A DNA stretch of 64,000 nt from a virus (IMGVR_UViG_3300020202_000067:17335-81334), one strand, 5' to 3'. Positions 2,115 through 53,305 are shown, numbered from the stretch's first letter. A program made the numbers and translations. The notes: a model not told the origin generated them from the letters alone.

Positions 2115-2137
2115 TACTTCTTCATGGGAGAGAGTTT

Positions 2138-3004: not shown

Positions 3005-3013
3005 GGTTTTGAA

Positions 3014-16300: not shown

Positions 16301-19300
16301 GGGCGTGCAGGACGGCACCCAGCTCACCCGTGCGCACCATGAGCAATGGGCCAAGGGCTTCGAGCGCTACTTGGCAGAGGGCAGCGCGCCTTCACCCCAG
16401 CTCCAGTCCGCCTTCGAGCGCTTCAAGACTTGGCTGATTGAAATCTACCGGTCACTGACCTCCATTGGCGACAAGGAGATCACCGACGAGGTCAGGGGCG
16501 TGATGGATCGGCTGCTGGCCACTGACCCAGAATTGGCCTTGGCCGGGAAGGCACCGCTTGTTGGCCCAGCCGGGCTAACGGGCGACATCCTCGGTGCCGT
16601 GGTGCCCAGGTTGCAGGAGGCCGGGTTCGATGGCCTAGTGACCAAAAGCGTGGGCGGGAAGACCCGCGCCATGGCTCTTCCTGCCCAGCTAGCCGGGAGG
16701 GACAAGCTCGGCGCAGCCATGGAGGCCACCGAAACGGGCGTGCCCTCACAGGTAGTGGCCCAGGGATTGGTCGGCAGCGCGGAGGACGCCGCGAGCCGCG
16801 CAGGCATTGCGCGCGTGCTGCGGACCGATGACAGCCCGGTCGGGGCGACCGGCGAAGGTGCTATAGCACCGGGACCAGATGTCTATGTCAACTTCGGCCG
16901 TATCAATGAACCTGACGACGTCAAGCAGGTTATCCGCGACCTGGCAGACGCCTTCAAGGGCGAGATCAATGAAGCACGGCGCGGTGTGCAATCCAATGAG
17001 GAGACAATCAGACTGGCGGATCGCCTTGGCATGGGGGTTGACGAGCTGCTGCAGCGTCAGAAAGGTCAGCCCTTCAATGCTGAGCAAGCGCTAGCGGCAC
17101 GGCGGCTGTTGAACACGTCGGCAGAACAGCTTCTCGGCTTCGCGGAAAAAGCTGCGCTGCCGACAGCAACGCTTGCCGACCAATACAATTTCCGCCGCAT
17201 GCTCGCCGTGCATCAAGCGATCCAGACTGAAGTGATTGCGGCAAGAACAGAGACCGCGCGTGCACTTCAGTCCTGGGCGATCCCGGCTGGTGGCAATGTC
17301 GAGATGGCACGCAACATTCAACAACTCATCGATGGAGCTGGTGGCGCAAAAGTGACGCAAGAGCTGGCCAAGCGCATGGCCATTCTCAAGGCGCAAGGTT
17401 TGCCGCCTGCTGCCATTGACACTATGGTCAAACGTTCCTGGGCGGCTGTTTCTATGGACATGGTTAAGGAAGCCTTCGTCCTTGGCCTTCTGTGGAACCC
17501 CAAAACGCATGTCGCCAACTTCGCTTCCAATCTTGTCACCGCTGCGCAACAGGTTTACGAGCGTTCAGCCGCAAGAGCGATAGGAGACCTTCTCGGCACA
17601 GCAGTCAGTGGTTCACGCGTGGTTGATGGAGAGGCCATCGCCATGATGTATGGCTGGGTGACGTCGCTCAAGGACGCATTCCGCCTGGCAGGACGCGCTG
17701 CCGTCTATGGTGAAACAGGCCAAGCCATACCTGGCTCCAAGATGGACGAGCGCATTGGCGCGATCTCTTCTCGACACATTGCTGAATCACGTGGTTACTC
17801 TGCTGTTGAGACTCAACAGTTCGTCAGCTCAACAGCAGGGCGCGCCATCGACTTCATGGGAACAGTTGTACGTTTGCCAGGCAATGCTCTGGCAGCAGGC
17901 GACGAATTCTTCAAGACTATCGGCTATCGCATGGAGTTGCATGCACACTCTTTGCGGCAGGCGACAGACGAGGGCTATACTGGACCAGACTTGTGGAAGC
18001 GTATGATGGAGATCGTCAATGATCCTCCTGAGCACATTCGCATCGCGGCCGCCGACGCGGCGCTTTACGCGACATTCCAATCTAAGATGGGAGAGATCGG
18101 CACAGCAATCAGCATGGCGCGCAATGCTGGCAGCTACAATCCAACTTTCGCAGTGCTGCCATTCGTAAAGACGCCTACCAATATTCTGCGCTACACTTTC
18201 GAGCGCACGCCGCTTGCATTCCTTGTGAAGCGCTGGAGAGACGACATCGACGCTGGCGGCGCGCGGCGCGATCTGGCATTGGCTCGCATGTCAACTGGCA
18301 CTGCCATCATGGCTGTTGCTATGGACTTTGCAGCCAATGGACAGATCACCGGCACCGGTCCGCGCGAGCGCGGCCGCAAGGAAGCATTGATGCGCGACGG
18401 CTGGCAGCCATCCAGCGCTCTTGTTGATGGAAAATACTACTCCTTCAACCGTGGCGATCCACTTGCGATGCCGTTCACTGTCATGGGACAAGTCGCCGAG
18501 ATCATGCGTTCCAAGGATCTTGCACCAGAAGACTTTGATCAGCTTCAAGAGATCATGGGCGCGGCCATAGGCATCATGTCAACGACTGTTGTTGACAAGA
18601 CTTACTTCCAAGGCATTTCGCAGATCATCATGGCGATTGAGAGCTCAGAGAAAGGTTCTCAAGCTGCAGCCAATTGGATGAACCGCCAGGTCGGCGGCTT
18701 TGTGCCATTCTCTTCTGCGCAAGGAGTGGTGAAGCAATTCACGGATCCTGTGCAGCGAGAAGTCAACTCGATGTGGGATGGCATTCAGAACCGCCTGTTC
18801 TGGATGTCAGAAAATTTGCCCCCTGTTCGTGATCTCTGGGGCGAGGAGCGTAAGCCGGAAGAAGTGTTCGGTAAGGCTTATGATGTTCTGTCGCCAGCTC
18901 AGGTCACCAAACAGAAGGGCTCGCCCATTGATCAAGAGATCATTCGTCTTGGCGGCTCCATTGAGCGCATCAAGAAGAAGGGCGAATTCATGGGGGCTGA
19001 TGTCAACTTTTATGAATGGCCGAAGGTGTATGACGAATACGTGCGCCTCGCCGGCAATGAGCTCAAGCACCCTGCCTGGGGCGTGGGGCTCAAGGATCTA
19101 TTGAATCAGGTTGTTTCTGGCAAGCATGAGTTGTCTGAAGTCTACAACTTCATGTCGAATGGACCTGAAGGCGGAAAGATGGCATGGCTCAAGAATCAGG
19201 TTTCAGCTTATCGCCGTTTGGCGCAACAAGAGATTATGAACTCAGACAAGTTTCCTGAATTTGTTAATTACGTCAATACGCGCAGACAGCAACGGCAGGA

Positions 19301-20247: not shown

Positions 20248-20858
20248 TGCCGGCCTTCCAGCCAGTCAGCGGCGCTCCTGTTGCAGATCCGAACCTCTAT
20301 GTAAGAGGCCTGCTGGCTATAGAGACAGGCTTCTTCAATCTCAATGGCCAAGCAGTCACACTCAGAAAAGGCTCCAAGGTCCAGGCAGGAGCTGGATCTT
20401 ATGCGCTGACCGGGAATGAAATTGCTTTCACCATCTCAACTTCTCAAGCGGGCATCAATCAGGTGCTCCTCACTGGATCGACATCAAACAGGGTTTACGG
20501 GTTCACAATGACAACCAATTTCGTCATGACTGCCGGAGACACAAAGACGCTCGTGATCTCTGTCAAAGACGCTTCCGGTAACCCAGTCAATATTACAGAC
20601 GCAAGCATCAAGTGGCAGGCAGGACGGAGCTTTGGTAAGGCGTCATCCATATCAAAAGCCACTGGCGGCTCTGGAATTTCGATTACGGATGCGGCGAATG
20701 GAGTGTTCACAGTCACACTCAATCCAAGCGATACAGAAAGTCTGAAGGGAACTTTTTATCACGAAGCTCAGGTTACTGGATCTGACAGTGCAATCTCTAC
20801 TGTAATATCTGGAACGATGAAGATCAACCCAGCATTGATCGAGTCAACAGCGACCTAA
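20247..20858 (+). CDS. tail fibre/spike-like protein 1
   Basis: 203 aa. N-terminus MPAFQPVSGAPVA is shared with the next gene. One GSYALTG unit; Ig-like T/S-rich C-terminal part. Confidence 0.6.
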   Translation: MPAFQPVSGAPVADPNLYVRGLLAIETGFFNLNGQAVTLRKGSKVQAGAGSYALTGNEIAFTISTSQAGINQVLLTGSTSNRVYGFTMTTNFVMTAGDTKTLVISVKDASGNPVNITDASIKWQAGRSFGKASSISKATGGSGISITDAANGVFTVTLNPSDTESLKGTFYHEAQVTGSDSAISTVISGTMKINPALIESTAT

Positions 20859-21550
20859 TGCCTTCATTCACTCCAGTATCAGGAGCGCCAGTCGCAACAG
20901 CCGCATTTGGCGGCACTGTCAATCACTACATCATAACAATCGATGCTGGATCTTACACACTTTCAGGACAAGCTGTTGATTTAGATTTCGGCCGCAAGCT
21001 TACGCTCGGTGCAGGGTCTTACACACTCACCGGTCAAGCGATTATTTTCGACGTCAAGATGCCGGCAGAGGCTGGCAGCTACACACTCACCGGCCAAGAT
21101 GTTGATCTCGATGCTGACAGAAAGATCTATCCGGATGCCGGAGCTTACACACTCACCGGTCAAGCGATTATTTTCGACGTCAAGATGCCGGCAGAGGCTG
21201 GCAGCTACACGCTCACCGGCCAAGATGTTGATCTCGACTTCGGCCATAAGATCACGATTGGAGCTGGCAGCTACACGCTCACCGGCCAAGATGTTGATCT
21301 CGATGCTGACAGAAAGATCTATCCGGACGTTGGCAGCTATGCACTCACCGGCAAGGATGTTGCTTTTGTATTCAGCTTAGACACCGACAATGGCCTTTAC
21401 ATAGTGCTGCACGGGGAGCAAGAGAGCGAGTTGGAGTTGGAAGGTCTGTTGCAAACTTCAATCAATCTTCATGGCAGACTCGAGACAGAAGAAGATCTGG
21501 ACGCGTTGAAAGTTGGCGACAGCAACCTCACCGGTGGTCTGAAGGCTTAA
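20858..21550 (+). CDS. tail fibre/spike-like protein 2 with seven GSYTLTGQ repeats
   Basis: 230 aa. N-terminus MPSFTPVSGAPVA. Seven ~21-aa units G[SA]Y[TA]L[ST]G..[VI].[FL]D. Confidence 0.6.
   Translation: MPSFTPVSGAPVATAAFGGTVNHYIITIDAGSYTLSGQAVDLDFGRKLTLGAGSYTLTGQAIIFDVKMPAEAGSYTLTGQDVDLDADRKIYPDAGAYTLTGQAIIFDVKMPAEAGSYTLTGQDVDLDFGHKITIGAGSYTLTGQDVDLDADRKIYPDVGSYALTGKDVAFVFSLDTDNGLYIVLHGEQESELELEGLLQTSINLHGRLETEEDLDALKVGDSNLTGGLKA
20948..21373 (+). repeat. in-frame tandem coding repeats (60-66 nt units; 126-bp near-perfect duplication)
   Basis: About 21017-21112 and 21143-21238 are nearly identical (one mismatch seen). 21264-21326 repeats 21073-21135. Confidence 0.85.
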
Positions 21551-32880: not shown

Positions 32881-33039
32881 TCACTTCCCCTTTTCAAGCA
32901 TAGCCAATCCTAGCAATCGCTCGATCTCTTCAGCCTCCCAACGCAGATGCCTAGCGCGTGATTCGAGGTTCTGTGCCTCTTTGCGCTTGGCTTCTGCTGC
33001 TGCGCGATCCTTAATTATTCTCTCGCCAATATTATCCAT
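32881..33039 (-). CDS. small coiled-coil protein (52 aa, not in track)
   Basis: MDNIGERIIKDRAAAEAKRKEAQNLESRARHLRWEAEEIERLL...; fills the gap exactly between neighbouring stop and start codons. Confidence 0.4.
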   Translation of the reverse strand: MDNIGERIIKDRAAAEAKRKEAQNLESRARHLRWEAEEIERLLGLAMLEKGK

Positions 33040-33251
33040 CAGTCAACGTCCTCCTCCTTCAACCCAGACCACTCGCGCGGCTTGCCATGTTGATCCAGAT
33101 ACTCAAGCGTGCTGAGCACATCGCGCTTCTCCTGAGCAGACATGCCTAACACATTGCATGCCTTCAGGACGCGCTTGGCGCTAGCCATGCTTGGGTTCTG
33201 GTTGTTGCCATAATCGCGCATGAGCGCAATCGCTGCTTCTGCCTTGTTCAT
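33039..33251 (-). CDS. hypothetical protein
   Basis: 70 aa track ORF. Confidence 0.55.
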   Translation of the reverse strand: MNKAEAAIALMRDYGNNQNPSMASAKRVLKACNVLGMSAQEKRDVLSTLEYLDQHGKPREWSGLKEEDVD

Positions 33252-33252
33252 C

Positions 33253-33714
33253 TCAATTCCTCACCGGGTGAAAGTTGCCGTCGCCATACTGATACGCCTT
33301 GGGGAAGGAGAGCAGCAGCTCAACGCCCTCAAGGAAGGTTTTATTGACCAACTTTATAGCAGGCATTCTGCTGCCTGCTATAACATGGCCGAGCCAACGG
33401 TGATTGCCGTCAAGGATGTAAGGCTCCTTGCTCAGCAGGCACGGCTTGCTCAGCACGCCGGAGCCGACCAAAGCCTTAGCCTTGCGCGCGTCCACCCGCT
33501 GGTGGGCGCGCACGAGCCACGGATCAATGGTGCACTCACGGACCTCCTCGCCCTTGTCCTTTAGGAAATCAAGGAGCTCAGGCATGTCATCACCGTCAAT
33601 TTGCGGCATGACTTCACGCGGGATGTAGAACGGTTCAAACTCTCCGCCTTTGTAAAAGCGGCCAAGGAGGGAGTTGCACTCCCCGCCTTTCGGTGCATGT
33701 TGCAGGCTCATCAT
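33253..33714 (-). CDS. ParB-like nuclease domain protein
   Basis: Start at MMSLQ (ATGA coupling). YILDGNHRW is the ParB/Srx-type DGxHR motif. Confidence 0.65.
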   Translation of the reverse strand: MMSLQHAPKGGECNSLLGRFYKGGEFEPFYIPREVMPQIDGDDMPELLDFLKDKGEEVRECTIDPWLVRAHQRVDARKAKALVGSGVLSKPCLLSKEPYILDGNHRWLGHVIAGSRMPAIKLVNKTFLEGVELLLSFPKAYQYGDGNFHPVRN

Positions 33715-34052
33715 GGCAGGTCCGGCCTTTCCTTTGCTGTGCATGAGCTATGATCATCGACATCTATGTGTGAAGGCAGCATTGCTTCCGCCTTCGCAAT
33801 GGCTTCACGCGGCGAGGCTGCACGCGCATAGTACTTGCGATAGAACCAGCGCTCGCCGTCACCGCAAGCAAGGTCAACTTCATAGACCATGTTTGCGGCG
33901 ATGACGTCCTGGTCGCATGCGCGACACGCCACGGAGTATGGTCCGTGCTTTTCGCAAACCTCCATCATGCGCTTACCTCTCAGTTGCTGGCGCAAGTCTT
34001 CTTGCGCGCGTTCGTTGAATGGATAGATCGCCTTCATAAGATCGGCCATCAC
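33711..34052 (-). CDS. hypothetical Cys-containing protein
   Basis: 113 aa track ORF. Confidence 0.6.
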   Translation of the reverse strand: MMADLMKAIYPFNERAQEDLRQQLRGKRMMEVCEKHGPYSVACRACDQDVIAANMVYEVDLACGDGERWFYRKYYARAASPREAIAKAEAMLPSHIDVDDHSSCTAKERPDLP

Positions 34053-34585
34053 AACCTTTCCAGCTTGAATGTCTTCGCCTTCTTGTCTTCTGTTAATCGA
34101 TAGGGAAGCTTATCCCTGTCGATCGACATCAGCATGCCCTTGATGACCATGCGCAGCGGACCGAGTTCTGCATGTGGGTTGCCGTAGACGGTCTCCAACA
34201 AGTCGCTGTAGGAGACCGTCTTCCCCAAGTCCCTAACCAACCGAGTGATGCATCTCTCCCTGTTGGTGCCATGCTTGGTCTTGAACTCAGCCAATACCGG
34301 ACCACCAGGGCCAGAGTATTTGGCACTCACCGGGACCACCCACTTAACCTTCTTGGGATCCCAGACCGCGTCCGGGTGCGGCTGGCGGGATTGGCGCTTA
34401 GCCGCCTTGCCCGCCTGCTTGGCTTCTAGGAAGGCAGCTTGAGCAGCGCGAAACCGCTCAAGCTCCTCTTCACGCTTTTCATCGCGGATGAGCAACGGCT
34501 TGGGAGGCGCTGCCTCCCACACCTTCGCCCGCTCCTCACGGCTCATGAAGCAGATGTCAGGCGCTCCATCTTCCATCATCATCTG
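34049..34585 (-). CDS. hypothetical protein, C-terminal domain paralogous to 26103-26345 (start uncertain)
   Basis: The track ORF extends to 34714, but its first 43 aa are low-complexity and overlap a better-looking frame. MMMEDG is taken as the start. Confidence 0.5.
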   Translation of the reverse strand, partial: QMMMEDGAPDICFMSREERAKVWEAAPPKPLLIRDEKREEELERFRAAQAAFLEAKQAGKAAKRQSRQPHPDAVWDPKKVKWVVPVSAKYSGPGGPVLAEFKTKHGTNRERCITRLVRDLGKTVSYSDLLETVYGNPHAELGPLRMVIKGMLMSIDRDKLPYRLTEDKKAKTFKLERL

Positions 34586-34754
34586 CTGCGCCTTCGTCAA
34601 GGCGCGAGGCGTAGGCTTCTCTGACTCTGGCAGGGAAGACGCGGGACTTGGCTTTTTTGACCGCGTGTTCCGGGCTGAGCGCGTAGACTGTGCGTTCTGC
34701 TTTCGTGCCGTCATTGAGCGTGAGCTCCACTCTGTACCTTGATCTCTCTGTCAT
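34557..34754 (-). CDS. hypothetical protein
   Basis: 65 aa. The N-terminal RYRVELTLNDGTKAERTVYALSPEHAVKK looks like a genuine small fold. The C-terminal half overlaps the next gene in another frame. Confidence 0.45.
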   Translation of the reverse strand: MTERSRYRVELTLNDGTKAERTVYALSPEHAVKKAKSRVFPARVREAYASRLDEGAADDDGRWSA

Positions 34755-35274
34755 AACGCTTCACCACGCTGTTATAGATACGGGACCCGACTTCATCGGC
34801 CTCCTGCTCCCATGGAGCATTCTCGTACCTAGCCTCCTGTCCGTTGACGAGGCGTCCGTTGTAGACAACGCCTTGCCGCGTCTGGCGCAAGCGACCCTGC
34901 AACATCTGTGAGACATGGACCATCTCGTGACAGAACACCGCAAGCGGCGTAGGTGCACTGAGACACTTGTCGCACTTGCCGCACCCAGACATGCTCTCAT
35001 TGAGCGTCATCATGATCTCGCCATTCGGTCCGAGAGCGGTGCTCGTGGAGCCCCGTGCATTGCCGTTGTAGCTGTCGTCATTCAGCTCGCCTGGCTCGAT
35101 GCCGAACAGCATGCGCAGAACATTTTCCGCCGGGTTGGGCGCCTTATTGTAGAAGCGAAGGATCACTTTATTTGGGAAGCGCGCGATCCAAAGCTCACGC
35201 ACGATCTCCTTGAACGCAGCTTGGTACTGCGCTTCCTTGTCCGGTGCATTTTCGATGATCAATTCCATTCTCAT
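34711..35274 (-). CDS. HExxH metallopeptidase-like protein
   Basis: Start moved to MRMELIIEN (ATGA coupling). FCHEMVHVSQ motif. 187 aa. Confidence 0.55.
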   Translation of the reverse strand: MRMELIIENAPDKEAQYQAAFKEIVRELWIARFPNKVILRFYNKAPNPAENVLRMLFGIEPGELNDDSYNGNARGSTSTALGPNGEIMMTLNESMSGCGKCDKCLSAPTPLAVFCHEMVHVSQMLQGRLRQTRQGVVYNGRLVNGQEARYENAPWEQEADEVGSRIYNSVVKRYDREIKVQSGAHAQ

Positions 35275-35432
35275 TCCTCCAGCAACCAGGCAACACTGAC
35301 GAAGGTCTGCACAGCCGCGACCGCAGCTTGAGCAGCATCCATACCAAGCGACACTTGCACGAGGAAGGTGCCGCTGAGCATTACGGCTAGCGCCATGTGG
35401 CGCTGCCGCTTGTTGGTGATGATCTTGCTCAC
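35271..35432 (-). CDS. small hydrophobic protein (53 aa, not in track)
   Basis: GTGA-coupled GTG start. MSKIITNKRQRHMALAVMLSGTFLVQVSLG...VSVAWLLEE. Confidence 0.4.
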   Translation of the reverse strand: MSKIITNKRQRHMALAVMLSGTFLVQVSLGMDAAQAAVAAVQTFVSVAWLLEE

Positions 35433-35605
35433 TCCTCGCCTCCCAGAACCGGGCTGAGGATGATGAACGCTGCAAGTGCGCCAGCGGCCCAGGAGTGGAC
35501 GCCGTGCCCTTCCAAGAAGGCGAAGGCAAGATAGGTAAGGTGCGCTGTCTCCTCGCCCATCTTGCGAGTTGCCTTGCCTTTAATCTTTTCAATGAACTTC
35601 TTCAT
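35429..35605 (-). CDS. small membrane protein
   Basis: MKKFIEKIKG...HSWAAGALAAFIILSPVLGG. Start chosen at 35605 by analogy with the spacing in the other conserved-block copies. Confidence 0.5.
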   Translation of the reverse strand: MKKFIEKIKGKATRKMGEETAHLTYLAFAFLEGHGVHSWAAGALAAFIILSPVLGGEE

Positions 35606-35611
35606 CTGCAT

Positions 35612-35632
35612 CTCTCCATGTTGCAGGCTTCA
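35612..35632 (-). promoter_or_regulatory. start-associated conserved block, copy 1
   Basis: Minus strand TGAAGCCTGCAACATGGAGAG, then ATGCAG-ATG. Confidence 0.8.
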
Positions 35633-35980
35633 GCACGGGTCCAGAATGACTTCGATCTCCTCGGTCAGACCTCCGTTGGGGTTGTCGGCCAAACGCGCGA
35701 AGGCGTTGGCCATCGTGTTGCCGAGCTCAGTGAGCGGCTGGCCATTGCGCTGCGCCAGCGTCACGGCCGCGTTGAACAGCGCGATCATGTAGCAGCCGGG
35801 GCAGAGCGTGCCTTCGTAGCTCTTGCCCTGCCAACGCGCACGATAGCGCATGGCTCGGTCGATGGTCGTGGCCAGTTCAGCGCCGAAGTTTCCACGTGTC
35901 TTGTCAGCGATGTGCACGAGGTCCCTGTCGCCGCCATAGACGCGGCCGTCGGTGCCATTGCGAGTGAGTTCGTTCGTCAT
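35630..35980 (-). CDS. hypothetical protein
   Basis: Start moved to MTNELTRNG, immediately after block copy 2. 116 aa. Confidence 0.6.
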   Translation of the reverse strand: MTNELTRNGTDGRVYGGDRDLVHIADKTRGNFGAELATTIDRAMRYRARWQGKSYEGTLCPGCYMIALFNAAVTLAQRNGQPLTELGNTMANAFARLADNPNGGLTEEIEVILDPC

Positions 35981-35984
35981 GTAG

Positions 35985-36005
35985 CTCTCCATGTTGCAGG
36001 CTTCA
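35985..36005 (-). promoter_or_regulatory. start-associated conserved block, copy 2
   Basis: TGAAGCCTGCAACATGGAGAG, then CTAC-ATG. Confidence 0.8.
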
Positions 36006-36200
36006 TAAACCAAACCACATCGGCTTGATTGCATCAACAACAGCCAACCAGAATTCCTTCTGATCAGCAAGGTCTGCGCCGCCATAGGCGTCGTAGTAGT
36101 TGGCATTGGACAACGCTTTCTTGTGCGCCTCTTCAGCGCCAAGAGCATTGATTAGCTGCTGCGCTCGCGCATCAGCCTCCTGGTAATCAGCAAGTTTCAT
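36003..36200 (-). CDS. hypothetical protein
   Basis: Start moved to MKLADYQ (ATGA coupling; GGAGG in AAGCCGGAGGCTGC upstream). 65 aa. Confidence 0.55.
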   Translation of the reverse strand: MKLADYQEADARAQQLINALGAEEAHKKALSNANYYDAYGGADLADQKEFWLAVVDAIKPMWFGL

Positions 36201-36622
36201 GCAGCCTCCGGCTTGAAAGGGTTGTAGCCCATCGCTTTTTCTTCTTCGAACGAAGGTGCCCATGACTCCACCTTGCTGCGTCCATAGTACAGCTTGCGCA
36301 GCAGGTCGTCGCGCGTTTCCACCGGCTCAACTGCGAGCGCGGCGAGCACTTCCTTATAGCGCTCCGCACCCCACAGCTTCTTCGCGATGTCATGGTCGAA
36401 GATGAGGCTGTCAGCAGAGGGGATCTCCTCGACGATGGTGTAATCGAAGCCGTCGCGCTTCTCGGTCACAACGTAGACCAAGTGATGCGCCACGATCACG
36501 TCGGTGACACCGAAGGCTTCGCGGATGATGTCCTTGAAAAGGTCTGCATGTTCAGCGTTGCGATCATTTTCCCAGGGTCCGGCGAGGCGCATGCCCTGCG
36601 GCGTGAAGTCATCCTTCATCAT
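36197..36622 (-). CDS. hypothetical protein
   Basis: 141 aa track ORF. Its start follows block copy 3. Confidence 0.65.
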   Translation of the reverse strand: MMKDDFTPQGMRLAGPWENDRNAEHADLFKDIIREAFGVTDVIVAHHLVYVVTEKRDGFDYTIVEEIPSADSLIFDHDIAKKLWGAERYKEVLAALAVEPVETRDDLLRKLYYGRSKVESWAPSFEEEKAMGYNPFKPEAA

Positions 36623-36627
36623 TTCAT

Positions 36628-36648
36628 CGCTCCATGTTGCAGGCTTTA
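36628..36648 (-). promoter_or_regulatory. start-associated conserved block, copy 3
   Basis: TAAAGCCTGCAACATGGAGCG, then ATGAA-ATG. Confidence 0.75.
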
Positions 36649-37275
36649 AATGTATTCCATCTGCTTGGGGCTCAGCGGGCGCGCGTACTTAGGCGCAGGG
36701 TCCTTGAGCCACTCGATGAGTTGCTTGCGCAGTGACTTCTTGAAGTCGCTACGCAGGTTGGTGGTGAGCAGCTTGCGGTAGCGCGCCCACTCGTAGTATG
36801 AGCGACGGCGCAGACGCAGAAGAGGCACATAGCTCTTGAGGCCGATCTTAGAGGCGATCTCCTTGATGTCCTTACGCGCCATGCGGAGCTCAGCCGCCTT
36901 CTGAGCGCGCTGCTGAGCACGATGCCTGGCTCTCTGTTCCTTCTGCCAAGCTTCGTATTTCGCCAGCGTCTCAGCGTCAGCATCAACCGACGTAGCGAAC
37001 AATGGGTAGGTCCACCCGCGCGTCGTGGCAAACATGACCGTGAACGGCTCGCCCTTTTCATCGTCCCAAATGAGACAAAAGAAGTCGCTGTCCCAAGCGC
37101 CGTTGTGCTCCCACTCCTTGAGCACGCGACCTTCGTATTTCTTCTTGGTCCAGTAGAGCCGCGTGACGGGCCACTCTTCACCCTTGAAGGGTCCGTCATA
37201 TTGCTTCTCGGTTCCTTGCGAGTGGCCCATGGTCGCACCCGGCTCCCATGGCTCTGCGAAGACGATGAGTGCCAT
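36646..37275 (-). CDS. hypothetical protein
   Basis: Start moved to MALIVFAEPW (GGAGCG RBS). 209 aa with a basic helical C-terminal half. Confidence 0.6.
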   Translation of the reverse strand: MALIVFAEPWEPGATMGHSQGTEKQYDGPFKGEEWPVTRLYWTKKKYEGRVLKEWEHNGAWDSDFFCLIWDDEKGEPFTVMFATTRGWTYPLFATSVDADAETLAKYEAWQKEQRARHRAQQRAQKAAELRMARKDIKEIASKIGLKSYVPLLRLRRRSYYEWARYRKLLTTNLRSDFKKSLRKQLIEWLKDPAPKYARPLSPKQMEYI

Positions 37276-37277
37276 GA

Positions 37278-37613
37278 TCAATCGCTCCACTTCTCGATGT
37301 AAGCGTTCGTCTCCTTGAGCACATCCTCAAGGTTGGTGGTATAGTCGGCGAGGCAGTCCTCGACGTTGCCCCAGATGAACTGCACCCAGCCTTGATAGCC
37401 GCGCTTATCAACATTGACCGGTATCTTGGTGACGTAGAACCGATCCTCGTCGGTCGTGAACATTACATTAAGAATGGCTTCTACATCCTTGCTGCAAATC
37501 AGCACATCCTCATCGCCTTCATTCACGGTGATGAAGTAGCCAGCAGCAATCAATTCTTCCGCTGCCTTGCGCGCGATGTTGCGCTCAAGCTCTTGATCCC
37601 ATTTGCGGCTCAT
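37278..37613 (-). CDS. hypothetical protein
   Basis: 111 aa track ORF with a GGAGG RBS. Confidence 0.65.
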   Translation of the reverse strand: MSRKWDQELERNIARKAAEELIAAGYFITVNEGDEDVLICSKDVEAILNVMFTTDEDRFYVTKIPVNVDKRGYQGWVQFIWGNVEDCLADYTTNLEDVLKETNAYIEKWSD

Positions 37614-37614
37614 G

Positions 37615-37695
37615 TCAGAACCTCCAGAAGAACGGCGCTGCGAACAGCGCGACCATTGCGAGCAGTCCTGCGGTTGCGATGAGTTGCTTGATCAC
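37615..37695 (-). CDS. tiny hydrophobic peptide (26 aa, not in track)
   Basis: GTGA-coupled GTG. MIKQLIATAGLLAMVALFAAPFFWRF. Its codons supply the GGAGG RBS of the next gene. Speculative. Confidence 0.3.
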   Translation of the reverse strand: MIKQLIATAGLLAMVALFAAPFFWRF

Positions 37696-37874
37696 TCAGC
37701 CCACCCCTGCAGCTCGCCGGTGTTCTTGGAGCGGACGGCGACGGCCAACCCACCCTGCGGCGCATCTTCGATCTTCCAGGTCTGATAGGGCATGGTGCTC
37801 TCACGAGCAAAGGTGCGCGCCCACTTGAGCGCGGCTTCGAAGTCGTTGAAGGTCTTGACAGGCATCTTGTTCAT
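37692..37874 (-). CDS. hypothetical protein
   Basis: 60 aa track ORF. Its start follows block copy 4. Confidence 0.6.
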   Translation of the reverse strand: MNKMPVKTFNDFEAALKWARTFARESTMPYQTWKIEDAPQGGLAVAVRSKNTGELQGWAE

Positions 37875-37879
37875 TTCAG

Positions 37880-37900
37880 CTCTCCATGTTGCAGGCTTCA
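37880..37900 (-). promoter_or_regulatory. start-associated conserved block, copy 4
   Basis: TGAAGCCTGCAACATGGAGAG, then CTGAA-ATG. Confidence 0.85.
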
Positions 37901-38248
37901 GAAACCGTTGGTGATGCGCTCCAGCGCCTCAGCCCATGCCGCCGTGCGGTCGGCGCTCATCGCATTCGACACCGGCGAAGTCGAGCGCTCCGGCCACCGC
38001 GCGCCGCGCAGCACCAGCCGCTTGATTTCGGACAACGCAGCTTCCGGCTTGTACTCCGGCAGCTCCGTCCATGCCTTGAGGGTCAGCGCAACCTCGAACC
38101 GTGCCGCAGCCTCCATGGCATTCTGCGCCCACTCGAAGGCGTAGGCGGGATTGGACTTGAAGTTTTCCTCGAACTTGCTGAGCGCGCCGCGCACCGCTGA
38201 GTTGGAAAATTCTTCGATGAGGCTGTCGATCTTATCTTGCAGTTCCAT
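37898..38248 (-). CDS. hypothetical protein
   Basis: Start moved to MELQDKIDSL after block copy 5. 116 aa, helical. Confidence 0.6.
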   Translation of the reverse strand: MELQDKIDSLIEEFSNSAVRGALSKFEENFKSNPAYAFEWAQNAMEAAARFEVALTLKAWTELPEYKPEAALSEIKRLVLRGARWPERSTSPVSNAMSADRTAAWAEALERITNGF

Positions 38249-38252
38249 TTCT

Positions 38253-38273
38253 CTCTCCATGTTGCAGGCTTCA
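38253..38273 (-). promoter_or_regulatory. start-associated conserved block, copy 5
   Basis: TGAAGCCTGCAACATGGAGAG, then AGAA-ATG. Here the leading TGA is not the upstream stop, which lies at 38293-38295. Confidence 0.85.
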
Positions 38274-38292
38274 GGCGTCCAGGGCAGTTCAG

Positions 38293-38574
38293 TCATCCAA
38301 GGTTGAATGGCTTGCGTCCTCCCCTTGTGGCATTGTCGATCTTGTCCATGACCGCGTAGAGAGCAGCCTGCTCTTTCTTCAGCGCCTTGCCGCGTGCACT
38401 CTTGAGCACGCTGTTGACCAGCCGTCGGCTATAGCGCTGGGTCTTGCTCTTGTTGATCGCGGCTTCAATGAGCTCGTCGATCTCCTTATCGATCACGTCA
38501 CAACGTGTTTCGGCGAGGCGGTAGATGCCCCACGTGGTGTTGATCGCTGCCTTCTCTTCCTTCGTTAGTTTCAT
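38293..38574 (-). CDS. hypothetical protein
   Basis: 93 aa track ORF. Its start follows block copy 6. Confidence 0.65.
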   Translation of the reverse strand: MKLTKEEKAAINTTWGIYRLAETRCDVIDKEIDELIEAAINKSKTQRYSRRLVNSVLKSARGKALKKEQAALYAVMDKIDNATRGGRKPFNLG

Positions 38575-38579
38575 TTCAG

Positions 38580-38600
38580 CTCTCCATGTTGCAGGCTTGA
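38580..38600 (-). promoter_or_regulatory. start-associated conserved block, copy 6
   Basis: TCAAGCCTGCAACATGGAGAG, then CTGAA-ATG. Confidence 0.85.
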
Positions 38601-38602
38601 AT

Positions 38603-38806
38603 TCACTTCATCGCTTCTTCAAAGAAGTTCGCCCACATGTCCGGCTGCCTCTCCGCCTTGGCCGCAGCCTCTCGGACCTTCGCGCCGGAGAAGGGCGGAT
38701 ACTTCTTGGAGCGCGGCTTCTTGTACGTGTCGGTCGCCTCGTCGTAGCGGTAGTTGCCGAATTGGCGCAGCATGCGCTCGAACTCTTGCAGCATCGTCGG
38801 TTTCAT
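38603..38806 (-). CDS. hypothetical protein
   Basis: 67 aa track ORF. Its start follows degenerate block copy 7. Confidence 0.6.
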   Translation of the reverse strand: MKPTMLQEFERMLRQFGNYRYDEATDTYKKPRSKKYPPFSGAKVREAAAKAERQPDMWANFFEEAMK

Positions 38807-38811
38807 TTCAG

Positions 38812-38832
38812 CTCTCCATGTTCAAGCAGGCC
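38812..38832 (-). promoter_or_regulatory. start-associated conserved block, copy 7 (degenerate 5' half)
   Basis: GGCCTGCTTGAACATGGAGAG, then CTGAA-ATG. Confidence 0.6.
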
Positions 38833-39049
38833 ATTCTTCGATCAAGGCGACGAATTCGTCCCCATCCATCATCGCGAGCTTTTCGAGTTGATTGTTGCTG
38901 AACTTGCCGCTGTCTTCGAGTTGATCGAAGACTTCCTGACCCAGCTCCAACCACGACTTGTTGAGCAACTTGCCGGGCTCGGACGGATCGATCTTCTTGA
39001 CTTCAGTGCTCACACCTTGGTAACGGAAAACATATGTCTTCGTCTTCAT
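38822..39049 (-). CDS. hypothetical protein (first gene after the 400-bp non-coding gap)
   Basis: 75 aa track ORF. Its start follows half-copy 8. Confidence 0.6.
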   Translation of the reverse strand: MKTKTYVFRYQGVSTEVKKIDPSEPGKLLNKSWLELGQEVFDQLEDSGKFSNNQLEKLAMMDGDEFVALIEEWPA

Positions 39050-39054
39050 TTCAG

Positions 39055-39063
39055 CTCTCCATG
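39055..39063 (-). promoter_or_regulatory. start-associated block, half-copy 8 (3' half only)
   Basis: CATGGAGAG then CTGAA-ATG. The 5' half is replaced by a long hairpin. Confidence 0.55.
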
Positions 39064-39120
39064 AGACAACAGGAAAGCGGCGGCAGGGTTGCGCCCCGTC
39101 GCCGCTTGATCTCTTGTCTC
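39063..39120 (-). other. extended stem-loop directly upstream of the first RBS of the small-gene array
   Basis: GAGACAA / TTGTCTC outer stem and AAGCGGCG / CGCCGCTT inner stem (8 bp perfect). On the minus strand it is followed by UUUCCUGUUGUCUC. Confidence 0.6.
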
Positions 39121-39453
39121 CAATTTTACTCTCTTGCCCCCGCTAGCAGCGTCTGTCGGCTAAGCGATCACGGCACCGTCGCGGTGGCGCGTCGCTCGCT
39201 CGGGATGCAGGACCGCCCGGTGAGCATGTTGCTCATCAACGCGAGAGGTCGCTACGCTCTTGCGTTGATGAACTCCCGCTGGAGACCACCTCTCGCTGCC
39301 CAACTGTTGTTGTCTTATTGGCTTGGTGGCGAGGGTACCAGTCAGAAGGACCTTTTATGCTTGGGCGTTCCGACCCGCTTTCTTTCTTTTTCAACCTGTG
39401 GCCGGATTATGCCTGAAATGATAAAGAAAGAAAACATATTTTTTCAACAGTGA

Positions 39454-39894
39454 TTACATGGACTTAGCGTAAATCAGGTCGTGGTAGACCTGGTCCCAAT
39501 CCCACTGCGCAGGTCCGCCAGAGTTTTCGAAAATCCAAAAACGCTTCGGCACGCCAACAAGTCCGGACGTGGCAAGATCGCGTATAGCCGCGCCTCTCAA
39601 CAGAATGAGATCATCACGCGCTTCACGTCGTTTGCCAGCCTTCGCCAGACGACGCACAGCGATGAAGACGCGACCACCATTGCGTATGCGACGCTCTATC
39701 CAACCCACCTGCGATGGCTGCACTTCACACGCGCTCGCCTCACAGCGCTTGTTCTCGATCCAACCTTCTGTGCCATCATGGCAGTAGTTCATGTCGGGCA
39801 CTCCTTGGCCCGTGCTCCATGTCTCCACCGCCTGCCAATGCACCATCGGTAGATGTTGTTGAAATAGTTGTCGCAGTCCCCCGTCGGTCTTCAC
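39454..39894 (-). CDS. VRR-NUC / PD-(D/E)xK endonuclease
   Basis: 146 aa, GTG start with a GAGG RBS. GVPDMNY...GWIENK matches the D...E.K nuclease core. Confidence 0.65.
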   Translation of the reverse strand: MKTDGGLRQLFQQHLPMVHWQAVETWSTGQGVPDMNYCHDGTEGWIENKRCEASACEVQPSQVGWIERRIRNGGRVFIAVRRLAKAGKRREARDDLILLRGAAIRDLATSGLVGVPKRFWIFENSGGPAQWDWDQVYHDLIYAKSM

Positions 39895-40099
39895 GCTGAA
39901 ACCTCGTCCATGGCAAATCGCGCGGCTTCATCACGCGCTCCATTGTGGTGAATGTTCTTCCACAAGACAAACATTTGCGATGCCGTCTAGCACGACGTGT
40001 CTGCATCACCTTGCTTGCGCTGTACCGGCAATAGGGGCAACAGACCTCTGTCTGCGAACTCTTTGCTCCGGATCTTGGCAGTCTGATCCTAGCCATCAA
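39776..40099 (-). CDS. NrdR-like zinc-ribbon protein (no ATP-cone)
   Basis: CPYCRYSASKVMQTRRA..RRHRKCLSCGRTFTTMERV parallels the NrdR N-terminal zinc ribbon. The 3' 119 nt overlap the VRR-NUC gene and look like out-of-frame sequence. Confidence 0.45.
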   Translation of the reverse strand: MMARIRLPRSGAKSSQTEVCCPYCRYSASKVMQTRRARRHRKCLSCGRTFTTMERVMKPRDLPWTRFQREDRRGTATTISTTSTDGALAGGGDMEHGPRSARHELLP

Positions 40100-42929
40100 T
40101 TTCTCCGAGGTACTTCACAGCCTTGATCTTGATCATGCGGAAGTCAGGCGGAACTGAGCCCTTGATTGCATAGAGCGACTTGCCTACTCGACCTTGCTCC
40201 ACGATCTGCCGACCAATGCGCTCGAAGTCGTAGCGGCTCACCTTGCAAAAGATCATGTCGGTGTCGTCCTTAATGAACAAGTTCAACGCAGCCGTCGGCC
40301 CATTGACCGCGTAGCCGCGCTTCATGACGTTGACGGCTTCGTTCTCATCCTTGGGCGCGATCTTGGAAGCGACGCCGATGATGACAACATCCTTGAACGC
40401 ACCGTCCGCTTGCACATCAATGACTGGCGTTGGCGCAGTGACAATGTTGATTGCTCCAAGATCTGGATGCAGCTCCTTCACCTTGTCAGCTATTGGGAAC
40501 AACGTGTCAATGTCGGTCTTGGCGTTGTCAAGTCGCTTCTTCAAGGTGGCACGCAGCGGTGTTCCTGAGGACCTCGCTTCCATGATCTCGCGGACGGTTG
40601 CTGAACCGATGCCCTTGATCGAGGTGAGAGGACCCACAAGGATCGTCCTCTCACCTTTCTTGATTGGCATCCACTTGTCTGTGGAGTGGTCCGGGTCAAA
40701 GGCGAGATAGTCAATGCCTTCTTCCTTCAACTCGCGCAGCAGCGCAATCTGTTTTGCTGGATCGCTCTCAGCATCTAATGTGGCAGCGGCAAACTCAACA
40801 GGATAATGCGCCTTGAGCCAACAGCAATAATACGACACGAGACCGTAGGCGACAGCGTGCGAACGGTTAAAAGCCCAAGAGCCGAAGGTGTTGATCTGAT
40901 CCCAAACAAGGCGCGCTGTGTCTTCATCGATCCCATTTTTCAATGCTCCATCCTTGAACTTCAACCAGTAGCGTTCGAAGAACTCATTGCCGAGACGGCC
41001 AGACATCGCCTTACGAATAGCAGACGTGTCCTCCCAGGACATGCCTCCCATCTCACGCACGATCTTCATCACCTGTTCCTGATAGATGGTGATGCCGAGC
41101 GTCTCCTTGGTGAGCTCGGTAAGCATAGGATGATAAGAAGATATCGGCTCCTTGCCGAGCTTACGTCGCACCCAGGACCCAGCGCCGCCCGTGGCCATTG
41201 GTCCAGGGCGCGCAAGCGCTGTAATCGAGATGATGTCTTCTAGGTGCGTCACCTCAATCTGCTTCACTAGCGATTGCAACGCCTGACCAGCAAATTGGAA
41301 CACACCAGCGAAGCGGTGCTGACTGAGAACATTGAATGCCGCCGCATCGTCCAATGGCAATCGATCAAAGAAGCGGAAATTTCCCTCTTCGCCGATCAGC
41401 TCCAATGCGCGCTCGAAGATTGAAAGCTGCGTCAGACCCAGAGCGTCGATCTTGAGTAGGTTCAGATCCTCAGCATCCTTCTTGTCGCACATGGCTGCGT
41501 TGGTGCGGCTGTCTACAGCGACATATTCAAGAATAGGCTCATCGGTGACAAGAACGCCAGCCGCGTGTTGCGAGGACGTTGTCGGGTGGCCTTCCATGCG
41601 GGAAGCCATCATGGCTTCTGGAAATTCATTCAGAAGAGACTGACCATTGATTGTCTCCTTGAGCGTGTCCTCAAGTTGCTGCATGGCGCGTGAGTCACCG
41701 GAGGAGCGTTCGATGATGCCGTCAAGCGCCTTGTCAACCTTCCACTTTGGTATGCGCAAGGAGATGCCAGCTTGCTGCAACGCGCTCTTGGGGCCGTACA
41801 TCATCACGGTTCCCAGCCGAGCCATGCGCTCCTCGCCATATTTCTCGGCAATGTACTTGAACACCTCCTCACGCTGCTTGTCAGAGAAGTCAACGTCGAT
41901 ATCTGGCAAATCCGCGCGATTGATATCGATGAAACGCTCAAAGATCAGTCCGTAAGGGATGGGATCTACTGTAGTGATATCGAGTAGGTAGCACACGAGA
42001 CTTCCACAAGAGGAGCCACGTGCCGGTCCGACAGCCATGCGGTCTCGAGCCCAACCAACAATATCTGAGAGGATGTAGAAATAGTCTTCAAACTTCTTGT
42101 CGGCGATAAGCTTAAGCTCCCGATCAAGACGCTCAGCATAGACCTTGTCTTTCAAATTGATGGAGCGTTTCTTCGCTCCTTCAATACACAATTGACGCAG
42201 CGTCTTCTTGCGCTCAGGCTTCAGGAGCGTCGCCTTCCTCAGTTCAGCTCGACATTGCTTGATTGCGTTATCTCTGGCCTTGATGGCAGCAGCCTTGTCC
42301 CGTTCACTAGCAAACCAGACAGCCTCCATCCATTCGTCATCATCAATGATCCATTGCGGATATGTTTGAGTGCCAGCTCTCTTCCCGAGAGCGACACGGT
42401 AAAGCTCAAGATCGGCTTGGCGAGGAAAGACATTGTCGCCGCTAGCGATGAAGCGGAACCCAGCAGCCTTCGCTTGTTTGTAGAGACCAATTGGCGTTGA
42501 TGGTGATAGAGCAACATAGAGATCCTTGTCCTTTTTCTTCACACGCTCAAGCTGCAGACGCTCGCCAGCGATCTTGATCACGCCCTGTGCGGCAAGCGCC
42601 TGCTTGTAAAGCAAGCTCGGCTCACGGCCAGGATTGGCTGTTGCAAGCGCAATGAGCTCATGGATAGAACGCAATGAGTCCTTGGCGAAGAATGTCCAGT
42701 AGTCTGGGCTTGGCCGCTTCTCCCCCAGAGAAGAGACCACTGCTAGTTCTACACCATAGATCGGTCTAAGCTCGTGCTTTGCGCACAGCTTAGACCAACG
42801 ATTAAATCCGAAGGCGCTCGTCCTGTCTGAAATCGGCGCGGCCTTCCACTTGATCTCCTTCAGACGCTCTATAATGTCTGGCAGGTGCCCCACCGCAGTG
42901 CGGAAGGAATATCCCGTGCGTATTCTCAT
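40089..42929 (-). CDS. dnaE: DNA polymerase III alpha subunit (DnaE-type)
   Basis: 946 aa. FERFIDINRADLPDIDVDF and downstream palm/fingers motifs are typical of DnaE. The N-terminal PHP-like region lacks obvious His clusters. Confidence 0.9.
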   Translation of the reverse strand: MRIRTGYSFRTAVGHLPDIIERLKEIKWKAAPISDRTSAFGFNRWSKLCAKHELRPIYGVELAVVSSLGEKRPSPDYWTFFAKDSLRSIHELIALATANPGREPSLLYKQALAAQGVIKIAGERLQLERVKKKDKDLYVALSPSTPIGLYKQAKAAGFRFIASGDNVFPRQADLELYRVALGKRAGTQTYPQWIIDDDEWMEAVWFASERDKAAAIKARDNAIKQCRAELRKATLLKPERKKTLRQLCIEGAKKRSINLKDKVYAERLDRELKLIADKKFEDYFYILSDIVGWARDRMAVGPARGSSCGSLVCYLLDITTVDPIPYGLIFERFIDINRADLPDIDVDFSDKQREEVFKYIAEKYGEERMARLGTVMMYGPKSALQQAGISLRIPKWKVDKALDGIIERSSGDSRAMQQLEDTLKETINGQSLLNEFPEAMMASRMEGHPTTSSQHAAGVLVTDEPILEYVAVDSRTNAAMCDKKDAEDLNLLKIDALGLTQLSIFERALELIGEEGNFRFFDRLPLDDAAAFNVLSQHRFAGVFQFAGQALQSLVKQIEVTHLEDIISITALARPGPMATGGAGSWVRRKLGKEPISSYHPMLTELTKETLGITIYQEQVMKIVREMGGMSWEDTSAIRKAMSGRLGNEFFERYWLKFKDGALKNGIDEDTARLVWDQINTFGSWAFNRSHAVAYGLVSYYCCWLKAHYPVEFAAATLDAESDPAKQIALLRELKEEGIDYLAFDPDHSTDKWMPIKKGERTILVGPLTSIKGIGSATVREIMEARSSGTPLRATLKKRLDNAKTDIDTLFPIADKVKELHPDLGAINIVTAPTPVIDVQADGAFKDVVIIGVASKIAPKDENEAVNVMKRGYAVNGPTAALNLFIKDDTDMIFCKVSRYDFERIGRQIVEQGRVGKSLYAIKGSVPPDFRMIKIKAVKYLGEIDG

Positions 42930-52821: not shown

Positions 52822-52937
52822 GCTGCATCCTCCGGAACTTCAGCGTGGTGAAGATAGCGCACAATCTTCTCCTCAGCGAGCAGCGCGAGCCGCTCTGCTT
52901 GGGTCTCGGTCAAGCCGTTGTGATGATTTGTGGTCAT
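52818..52937 (-). CDS. small hypothetical protein (39 aa, not in track)
   Basis: MTTNHHNGLTETQAERLALLAEEKIVRYLHHAEVPEDAA. ATGA overlaps at both ends. Confidence 0.4.
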   Translation of the reverse strand: MTTNHHNGLTETQAERLALLAEEKIVRYLHHAEVPEDAA

Positions 52938-53305
52938 GAAATTGCAACCTCAAATGTGGGCCATCGAACTTGGCGCTTGGGTTGATATGGAAACGTCACT
53001 GGAACATTGCTGTCGATGTCATACACGCGTCCAGTTCTAGCATCTTTGAATACAGAACCACAACGCTTGTTCTGAAACAATGGGCCATCATCTGAAATTT
53101 CCATCCACTCATCGTCCTCACCCGTGAGCGGAGAGAGCGGACCGCCCGCAAGCAATTGCATGAACACCGGAGCGACAGCCGCGACGGCTCCTCCACTGTC
53201 CCATTGATCGAGAAACTTTTCCAAGATCTCAATCATGACTGCGCTGTCTTCCTCGCCGAAGTTGATGCGCTCAAGCTCAGCCTTGGCTTGATCGATGATG
53301 CTCAT
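52934..53305 (-). CDS. hypothetical protein
   Basis: 123 aa track ORF. Confidence 0.6.
   Translation of the reverse strand: MSIIDQAKAELERINFGEEDSAVMIEILEKFLDQWDSGGAVAAVAPVFMQLLAGGPLSPLTGEDDEWMEISDDGPLFQNKRCGSVFKDARTGRVYDIDSNVPVTFPYQPKRQVRWPTFEVAIS

Follow-up and report, generated by a model that had tools for sequence, protein, structure and literature searches.

Why should one short sequence stand directly ahead of the start codons of unrelated small genes? The question is raised by a block of about 26 nt that recurs on the minus strand of IMGVR_UViG_3300020202_000067:17335-81334, a 64,000-nt stretch (here called the window, always at its full length) of the 81.3-kb contig of an uncultured phage found in several samples. 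An initial annotation of the window had reported eight copies at the starts of small genes, and the repeat proved to be real, located as claimed and not attributable to chance. Our favoured reading, which we hold tentatively at a probability of roughly 0.42, is that the block is an RNA-level linker for translation and coupling at the starts of gene modules, that it doubles as a recombination handle, and that intragenomic recombination keeps it uniform. In short, the block looks like a punctuation mark for protein starts.

Anatomy of the repeated block

Aligned on CATGGAG, six copies share a 17-nt invariant core, AAGCCTGCAACATGGAG, on the minus strand. The consensus first proposed began with TGA/TAA; the conserved block stands, but this leading triplet lies outside the core because the copies differ there (TGA in four, TAA in one, TCA in one, so that the two bases preceding the core are TG four times, TA and TC). 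A search with the pattern AGCCTGCAACATGGAGAG, allowing up to three mismatches, recovered the six near-perfect copies that had been described, all on the minus strand between 35612 and 38597 (35612-35629, 35985-36002, 36628-36645, 37880-37897, 38253-38270 and 38580-38597), five of them exact and one with a single mismatch, and added a seventh match at 33691-33708. Only 0.12 matches were expected by chance, and seven were reached in 0 of 100 shuffles. Indeed, a repeat search of the window returned a single eight-member family as its sole dispersed intergenic repeat. An nhmmer profile of the six copies found its own members at E values of 1e-10 to 4e-8, and also matches at 38831 (copy 2 below; 6e-6), 39063 (copy 1; 0.002) and 33708 (a ninth, partial copy; 0.03), with no other credible match in the window. 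All copies lie on the minus strand in the replication and accessory arm, restricted to 33.7-39.1 kb, one 5.4-kb segment of an operon, and the alignment reveals no conservation in their flanks.

We number the copies from the head of the cluster and give product lengths from independent public gene calls, which place every start directly after a block and thereby support the redefined gene starts. Copy 1 (CATGGAGAGCTGAA, 39050-39063; ATG at 39049), reported earlier as a half-copy at 39055-39063, is indeed the 3′ half only; the opening gene of the cluster (75 aa, 38822-39049) follows it, and the sequence 5′ of its CATG is unrelated to the block. Copy 2 (GGCCTGC-TTG-AACATGGAGAGCTGAA, 38807-38832; gap of 15 nt; ATG 38806, 67 aa) had been called degenerate at 38812-38832; it is deviant, but rather as a full block whose 5′ half has gained 3 nt (TTG) and carries one A-to-G change; this TTG and the next A supply the TGA stop of gene 1. 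Ahead of copy 3 (TCAAGCCTGCAACATGGAGAGCTGAA, 38575-38600; gap 28; ATG 38574, 93 aa) the upstream TGA stop (38603-38605) lies 4 nt from the core. Copy 4 (TGAAGCCTGCAACATGGAGAGAGAA, 38249-38273; gap 44; ATG 38248, 116 aa) is the one for which a stop further upstream had been noted, and the stop of its upstream gene does lie at 38293-38295; another open reading frame (ORF), beginning from an ATGA overlap (38296), crosses this copy in frame, and therefore the block may be translated there. Copy 5 (TGAAGCCTGCAACATGGAGAGCTGAA, 37875-37900; gap 23; ATG 37874, 60 aa; upstream stop TGA 37898-37900) stands at the head of a four-gene module whose internal junctions abut or overlap. Copy 6 (TAAAGCCTGCAACATGGAGCGATGAA, 36623-36648; gap 26; upstream stop TAA 36646-36648) precedes an ATG at 36622 or 36619 and thus a product of 140-141 aa (140 in the public call), copy 7 (TGAAGCCTGCAACATGGAGAGCTAC, 35981-36005; gap 22; upstream stop TGA 36003-36005) precedes the ATG at 35980 of a 116-aa product, and copy 8 (TGAAGCCTGCAACATGGAGAGATGCAG, 35606-35632; gap 24; ATG 35605, 58 aa; upstream stop TGA 35630-35632) stands at the head of a long run of overlapping genes. 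The ninth copy (TGATGA-GCCTGCAACATG, 33696-33713) comprises the 5′ half and CATG only, without a Shine-Dalgarno (SD) sequence. It follows the tandem stop TGATGA, diverges thereafter, and falls within the first codons of the next gene, whose start is an ATGA overlap. Both partial copies are thus broken exactly at the central CATG.

Conservation is unevenly spread over the block. The 5′ half is identical at 66 of 66 bases, and the spacer after GGAGAG differs in four of six copies, with about 9-10 changes over about 42 positions (counted by hand from the alignment); the 4-8 nt spacers after GGAG(A/C)G read AGCTGAA twice, AGAGAA, CGATGAA, AGCTAC and AGATGCAG. As the initial annotation had it, all copies share one orientation and end 4-6 nt before an ATG, measured from GGAGAG (GGAGCG in one copy). 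Its assignment of GGAGAG as an SD sequence is likewise borne out, with GGAG 6-8 nt ahead of the ATG in 8/8 copies and a start context that relatives share; A opens the second codon in 7/8.

Module starts in a hypervariable operon

What do these positions have in common? We tabulated 48 consecutive minus-strand junctions from the public gene calls. Nearly all of them overlap or abut, with gaps of -4 to +3 nt, the usual arrangement in translationally coupled phage genes. The block junctions are the sole noncoding gaps of 15-44 nt among the 48, and therefore every block stands at the head of a module of one to five genes. Among the seven copies with a 5′ half, five have the upstream stop directly against the core, which agrees with the earlier remark that the stop of the preceding gene usually sits at the head of the block; the operon's first gene, with no cistron ahead of it, has a block without a 5′ half. 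The internal ATG of the block (AAC-ATG-GAG) has three outcomes, namely a mini-ORF of 3-5 codons ending TGA-A-ATG, a mini-ORF overlapping the real ATG (ATGA), or a frame shared with the real ATG, and in no case does it read into the gene in another frame.

The genes themselves are unrelated. All-against-all BLASTP found no paralogy among the block-headed proteins, as had been stated from inspection, and no Pfam domain was found in them; paralogy of flanking genes was rejected as the source of the repeat on the same BLASTP result. Two conserved genes border the cluster on the minus strand: the upstream anchor gA (39454-39894), directly after the DnaE polymerase gene, is 44-56% identical in 12 related loci and always just after the polymerase, and the downstream anchor g13 (34049-34714) has matches in five (L069, L045, L071, L057 and L024). 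For the small genes in between, a homologue turned up in only one case, in a single related locus. Because the anchors are conserved and nearly all of the inner genes lack homologues, the cluster occupies a hypervariable slot.

Within this slot, we propose, the block would mark the start of every independently acquired gene module of an accessory-gene operon. Its 3′ half (CAU-GGAGAG-N4-6-AUG-AA) would serve as a translation initiation region, with a well-spaced GGAG SD, a mostly A-rich second codon and a short A/C-rich run ahead, in a start context that related phages use as well; because the 3′ half is the start context of the family, a ribosome-binding role is the best-supported step. The 5′ half (AAGCCUGCAA) would fill the stretch from the upstream stop codon to the SD, where a ribosome terminating on the upstream gene may cover it and pass to the next start 22-28 nt away. 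Weak pairing of the 5′ half with the SD or spacer, predicted in five of seven copies, might make downstream initiation partly dependent on upstream translation. The letter-perfect identity of the copies would come mainly from concerted evolution, through intragenomic recombination or gene conversion and the gain and loss of cassettes at the repeat, with recognition of every base contributing a lesser share; if so, the repeat would also be a recombination handle and the source of the cluster's modularity. The anatomy and position of the block, the synteny, the uniqueness of its gaps and the homogeneity of such elements within a genome are observed directly; its translation strength, its role in coupling and its part in recombination belong to the function that we infer for it.

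We favour this reading because the blocks are the only such gaps and head the modules; because of the GGAG spacing, the A-initial second codons and the start context shared with relatives; because the stop adjoins the core in most copies and the first gene dispenses with the 5′ half; because the internal ATG never leads into the gene in a wrong frame; because the module genes are unrelated ORFans between two conserved border genes; because the punctuation elements of relatives are genome-private and internally uniform; because the partial copies break at CATG, as a bipartite or recombining unit would leave them; and because copy 2 tolerates an insertion.

Several observations weigh against it. 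Pairing of the SD region by the 5′ half is possible in five of seven copies (AGCCU with AG(A)GCU across the SD in four, CUGCA with a variant spacer in the fifth), but the resulting SD-masking hairpin is weak (-5 to -7 kcal/mol, z -1 to -1.9) and missing in two of the seven, and block starts have the same predicted accessibility as other starts. An SD-sequestering hairpin as the main explanation was therefore rejected as too weak and not universal. Nor can the 5′ half be an extended SD, since the anti-SD lies at the very 3′ end of 16S rRNA, which leaves anything further than about 5 nt upstream of GGAG without a partner. Moreover, a generic spacer needs no 66/66 identical bases in the 5′ half beside a variable 4-8 nt spacer; concerted evolution might explain this invariance. 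Finally, no close relative or population variant displays recombination at the block, and the public copies of the 81.3-kb genome from other samples are all 100% identical to the window.

The same invariance could reflect a binding site. An RNA-binding protein of phage or host, or a host small RNA, might recognise AAGCCUGCAACAUGGAG, occlude the SD and switch the module-first genes jointly, in the manner of a RegA-like translational operator. The invariant 17-nt core overlaps the SD, conservation ends right after GGAG and leaves the spacer free to vary, all copies lie in one operon and one orientation, and for the start-associated sequences (SAS) of Cluster K mycobacteriophages, too, the describing authors allowed for such a reading (PMC3203893). 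We nevertheless consider an operator quite unlikely. No candidate regulator emerged, no phage-encoded antisense RNA was found (a search of the whole genome returned no trans-acting antisense or guide RNA against the block), copies 1 and 2, with the 5′ half missing or disrupted, would escape control, the motif is private to one genome and so yields no co-evolution signal, and homogenisation within the genome can account for the invariance without a binder.

Might each block instead be a middle promoter ending in GGAGAG, used by a phage-specific or phage-modified RNA polymerase? About 20 nt are conserved in one orientation and end just ahead of genes, and the region upstream of the first gene is different and contains a sigma-70-like site. 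T7-class promoters are conserved elements of about 23 bp (-17 to +6) with a mapped triphosphate start, and the length of the block is compatible with this size. Yet Pfam and PHROG scans of most large ORFs, the domain lists of the loci L194, L197 and L199, and a PDB search with a 2994-aa protein, which has no RNA polymerase similarity, revealed no gene for a single-subunit or N4-type RNA polymerase in the 81-kb genome, almost the whole of which was reconstructed and covered in this way. The T7-type promoter put forward in the initial annotation is therefore rejected. By eye, the block contains no -35/-10 pattern and no sigma-54, ECF, Caulobacter sigma-73 or GANTC/GcrA motif. The upstream stop adjoins the block without a terminator, a start site within the block would leave a leader of at most 15 nt, and the SD lies inside the conserved block; searches at the blocks revealed no promoter-like or terminator-like sites, and no inverted repeats or terminator-like hairpins beside them. 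A promoter role is thus very improbable. The integron attC core (RYYYAAC), also compared by eye, is unmatched by the block. The 2994-aa protein is itself an internal virion protein (window 10359-19343, plus strand) with a Zeta-toxin/AAA_33 kinase-like domain at residues 637-790.

Upstream of copy 1 lies a noncoding leader of 390 nt (39064-39453, minus strand) with a sigma-70-like site, TTGAAA-18-TATCAT, at 39447-39418, and this is probably the start of the operon. The leader is strongly structured by prediction (fold z -3.9), with several long hairpins, one of them directly 5′ of CATGGAGAG, and its possible roles are those of a leader, a small RNA or an antitermination element. No part of this RNA was found to be conserved in relatives. 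The leader sequence UUGAUGAG, considered as a ribozyme core, was rejected because it is buried in a long hairpin stem.

The same slot in related phages

Is the block shared with other phages, or does something else occupy its place? We compared 60 IMG/VR loci (0.87 Mb) whose DnaE is 47-68% identical. The profile scan, which had yielded the ninth partial copy in the genome, found no credible match in these loci. Similarly, an exact 16-mer scan of IMG/VR gave 14 single matches and no multi-copy match, and a metagenome scan gave at least 119 single matches, judged to be at chance level, with no multi-copy match among the matches listed. The 5′-half word AAGCCTGCAAC occurs at two independent coding sites in the relatives, within the range of shuffled words, and is not enriched.

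The slot in the relatives holds type II hammerhead arrays, an unclassified structured repeat or repeated extended ribosome-binding sites. For example, the slot of L024 (13347-18087) carries seven type II hammerheads at the Rfam gathering score and eight by a strict descriptor, each positioned between the stop of a small gene and the SD-ATG of the next. L018 (9312-11824) has four with full cores but below the Rfam gathering threshold, three of them at 23.8-25.1 bits versus 37. In L015, among the closest relatives, one hammerhead (13745-13810) stands immediately ahead of the first gene of the cluster and is followed by AAGGAGAGCAGAAATG, almost identical to the 3′ half of the window block; the start contexts are nearly the same (GGAGAGCAGAAATG in L015, GGAGAGCTGAAATG in the window), and similar starts occur in L020, L024, L038 and L040. 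Hammerhead arrays also lie elsewhere in the genome in L032/L033 (minus strand, about 2770-4240), L040/L070 (minus strand, 974-3166) and L068 (minus strand, 391-1601). Overall, type II hammerhead arrays between small genes were observed in eight related loci of this DnaE-phage family.

Other relatives differ. The slot of L064 (13975-18225; same contig as L200:5051-9268) contains eight or nine copies of a structured intercistronic element of about 65 nt, consisting of AGGAAGCUCUAACGGU, a covarying variable hairpin, (GA)UCC and then GCCAGCGCUUCCGCUGG. Its 5′ GGAAGC is complementary to a GCUUCC loop, a possible pseudoknot. Rfam does not match the element even at E<=10, other viral contigs lack it, and it is a candidate for a self-cleaving or processing RNA of an unclassified type. 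An extended ribosome-binding site, AACAGAGAGGATGAAA, recurs in L017 and L069, often behind a variable hairpin, with milder forms in L020 and L045. Neither a ribozyme nor a private 5′ motif was found in L017/69, L020, L045, L057, L061 or L021. Separately, (A)AAGGAAACCAGAATGAC occurs four times in L041:8142-8590, where very short ORFs begin close to the contig end, and is another short linear start-associated repeat in the DnaE-phage family.

The initial annotation held that the block would be just a strong ribosome-binding context if relatives conserved only its GGAGAG part. In effect this is what the 60 loci contain, since they share with the block only the GGAGAG-N4-6-ATG context and a mild A/C-rich run ahead of the SD (AACA within 8 nt of GGAG is 4-fold enriched across the family), but none of them is close enough to bear directly on the 5′ half. 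The punctuation elements of the relatives are likewise private to single genomes. Hammerhead copies are 0.73-0.88 similar within a genome versus 0.63-0.75 between genomes, and therefore punctuation elements evolve in concert in each genome. A boundary sequence for cassette shuffling, one of the alternatives listed in the initial annotation, thus gains support from the hypervariability of the slot, from the block junctions being the sole non-overlapping ones and from this concerted evolution.

Does the window itself encode such a ribozyme? Rfam returned nothing at gathering score over the 64 kb and nothing at E<=10 in 33000-40200, and the hammerhead descriptor had 0 matches in the window, versus 8 in L024 and 4 in L018. 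By the RF02276 criteria (core CUGANGA ... GAAA, stems I-III, a cleavable UH site) the block was rejected as a type II hammerhead, since 'CUGAAGCC' lacks A9 and C3 is present in only three of six copies. The main rival to our reading is that the 5′ half is nonetheless a site of endonucleolytic processing or stability, at which an endoribonuclease of host or phage would cut the polycistronic RNA in or near AAGCCUGCAACAU and free modules with an SD near the 5′ end, a protein-dependent equivalent of the self-cleaving hammerheads found at these junctions in relatives. Type II hammerheads flank genes as arrays in prophages and phages (Perreault et al. 2011, PMC3088659; Rfam RF02276), and where they cluster around single genes or short runs of genes in alphaproteobacterial prophages, they cut polycistronic RNA in vitro (PMC3088659). 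Together with the hammerheads just 5′ of SD and ATG in the syntenic slots of L024, L018 and L015 and the different structured repeat of L064, this gives indirect support to the RNA-processing site suggested earlier, but the lack of a ribozyme in the window speaks against it. The invariant 5′ half would suit sequence-specific recognition, its absence at the first gene of the operon is expected of a cistron separator, and it loosely resembles the hammerhead 3′ tail CTGA(A/T)GAGCCAGCCAACA (shuffle p 0.004-0.05 before correction for multiple comparisons), a likeness that is weak once multiple comparisons are allowed for. Against processing, the flanks contain no conserved structure or inverted repeat, and therefore the block is not an RNase III substrate; no antisense partner in the genome could form a double-stranded substrate; no nuclease candidate was identified; and the many relatives with neither ribozyme nor 5′ motif argue that processing is not obligatory in the slot. 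On balance a processing role is a minor possibility, and it is with the same reserve that we suggest AAGCCUGCAACAU as the recognition site of a sequence-specific RNA-cutting or RNA-binding factor that has assumed, in this lineage, the task performed at the same junctions of sister phages by hammerheads and, in L064, by the structured repeat.

The tail likeness also bears on a simpler idea, that the 5′ half is a functionless relic (for example of a type II hammerhead 3′ tail or an earlier junction), carried along with the ribosome-binding site each time short-homology recombination duplicated or exchanged a cassette. The block can be aligned to the tails of the hammerheads in L024, L040 and L015, and also to a AGCCAGCCAAAAGGAGAATGAAATG in L038 that has no ribozyme; this hints, on weak statistics, that the 5′ half may derive from a decayed ribozyme cassette. 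The genome-private, homogenised elements, the partial copies broken at CATG, the insertion tolerated in copy 2 and the reading of copies 4 and 9 as coding sequence all agree with a relic. On the other hand, the 66 positions have not drifted at all beside an adjacent spacer with several changes, direct repeats 230-1250 bp apart are prone to deletion, so that the retention of eight suggests a benefit, and the hammerhead-tail similarity is statistically weak. We regard a relic as unlikely and return to the module-start linker as the favoured account.

The phage and known repeat systems

The genome that carries the block encodes a podovirus-like virion module, a DnaE-type polymerase (40089-42929), a helicase, a primase and a thymidylate synthase, and no tRNA genes were found in it. 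INPHARED megablast gave no match and hence no near relative among cultured phages, to any of which DnaE is at most 38.6% identical. The phage also encodes a Tad3-like Thoeris inhibitor (window 52934-53305, minus strand), a GcrA-like cell-cycle regulator (61776-62414, plus strand) preceded by a GerE-type helix-turn-helix (HTH) protein, further HTH proteins, and, beyond the right end of the window and just upstream of the terminase region, a NusG-like protein (L199:14981-15478); the Tad3-, GcrA- and NusG-like proteins suggest host-takeover and antitermination functions. GcrA is characteristic of Alphaproteobacteria, and the encoded homologue therefore points to an alphaproteobacterial, Gram-negative host. 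Separately, the structural module ends in a 230-aa ORF (20858-21550) with in-frame tandem repeats at 20942-21362 (plus strand; 60/66 nt, 126-nt super-period), seven copies and one more distant at 20322, and this is probably a repetitive fibre or receptor-binding protein.

What follows for phage gene clusters more broadly? No function has been established for SAS-type repeats or for hammerhead arrays that flank genes in the roughly 15 years since both became known. Here one syntenic slot, set by the same two conserved genes, holds three solutions (ribozyme arrays, a structured repeat and a bare 26-nt linker), and therefore the function of such punctuation becomes experimentally approachable. 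If a factor has indeed replaced the hammerheads, this would be a natural ribozyme-to-protein switch in operon punctuation and would give phage hammerhead arrays a testable function; if the 5′ half is merely a homogenised spacer, the cluster is a clear but ordinary example of modular accessory genes. The value of the finding thus lies in the family context of the slot, and the block itself may be an ordinary homogenised linker. For annotation, the block pins down where eight small genes really start, which naive ORF calling gets wrong by extending or misplacing them.

Among classical systems, the RNase III sites of the T7 early region and the T4 proteins RegB (GGAG-specific) and RegA represent intercistronic or start-site signals repeated along early polycistronic RNA, which set mRNA ends or translation of many unrelated genes together. 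Unlike T7 RNase III sites, the block has no double-stranded structure, and no RegA or RegB homologue was identified in the phage. The stoperators of Cluster A phages are asymmetric repressor-binding sites scattered along both arms of a temperate phage genome; in contrast, the block copies are confined to 33.7-39.1 kb, and no integrase or repressor appears in the domain lists.

The precedent named in the initial annotation, the Cluster K SAS, is also the nearest analogue in behaviour; it is a short asymmetric 13-bp repeat present in 11-19 copies of one orientation (Pope et al. 2011, PMC3203893). It lies 3-7 bp ahead of the mostly ATG starts of unrelated non-structural genes, includes the SD core, carries conserved bases unable to pair with 16S rRNA and sometimes contains the upstream stop; a role in translation initiation or as a factor-binding site was proposed, extended SD pairing was argued against from the position of the 16S anti-SD, and about half of the sites carry an upstream 17-bp inverted repeat, the ESAS (PMC3203893). 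The block is likewise short, asymmetric and of single orientation, 4-6 nt ahead of the ATG of unrelated non-structural genes, with an SD core and unpaired conserved bases. However, the SAS consensus GGGATAGGAGCCC (up to two deviations) is not matched by the block, AAGCCTGCAACATGGAGAG, which shares only GGAG with it; the block is 17-26 bp long rather than 13, is private to one genome where SAS are conserved across three subclusters and tied to gene families, lacks an ESAS-type inverted repeat, and is confined to a single operon segment of a phage whose host is, by inference, Gram-negative and alphaproteobacterial. Since neither the consensus nor conservation across relatives nor ESAS applies, the block is no member of the Cluster K SAS; the precedent stands as a fair functional analogy, but not as the same family.

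Hammerhead arrays resemble the block in setting. The block occupies the same syntenic positions, between the stop of a small gene and the next SD, and resembles the arrays in module size, in the stop abutting the element, in homogeneity within a genome and in the alphaproteobacterial setting. Unlike them, it has no catalytic core, stems or cleavage site, so that any cleavage would need a protein, and it measures 26 nt, as against 55-80 nt plus tail. In T4-like phages, PeSL cassettes combine early-promoter and stem-loop repeats, flank ORFans in hyperplastic regions and are points of homologous exchange between otherwise unrelated genes (PMC2839356, PMC4122927). The block, too, flanks ORFans in a hypervariable region; it differs in carrying a ribosome-binding site, with no sigma-70 promoter and no terminator hairpin at any copy. 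The block shares its genomic role with the hammerhead arrays and would share its evolutionary role with the PeSLs of T4 (PMC4122927), but bears signals for translation rather than transcription.

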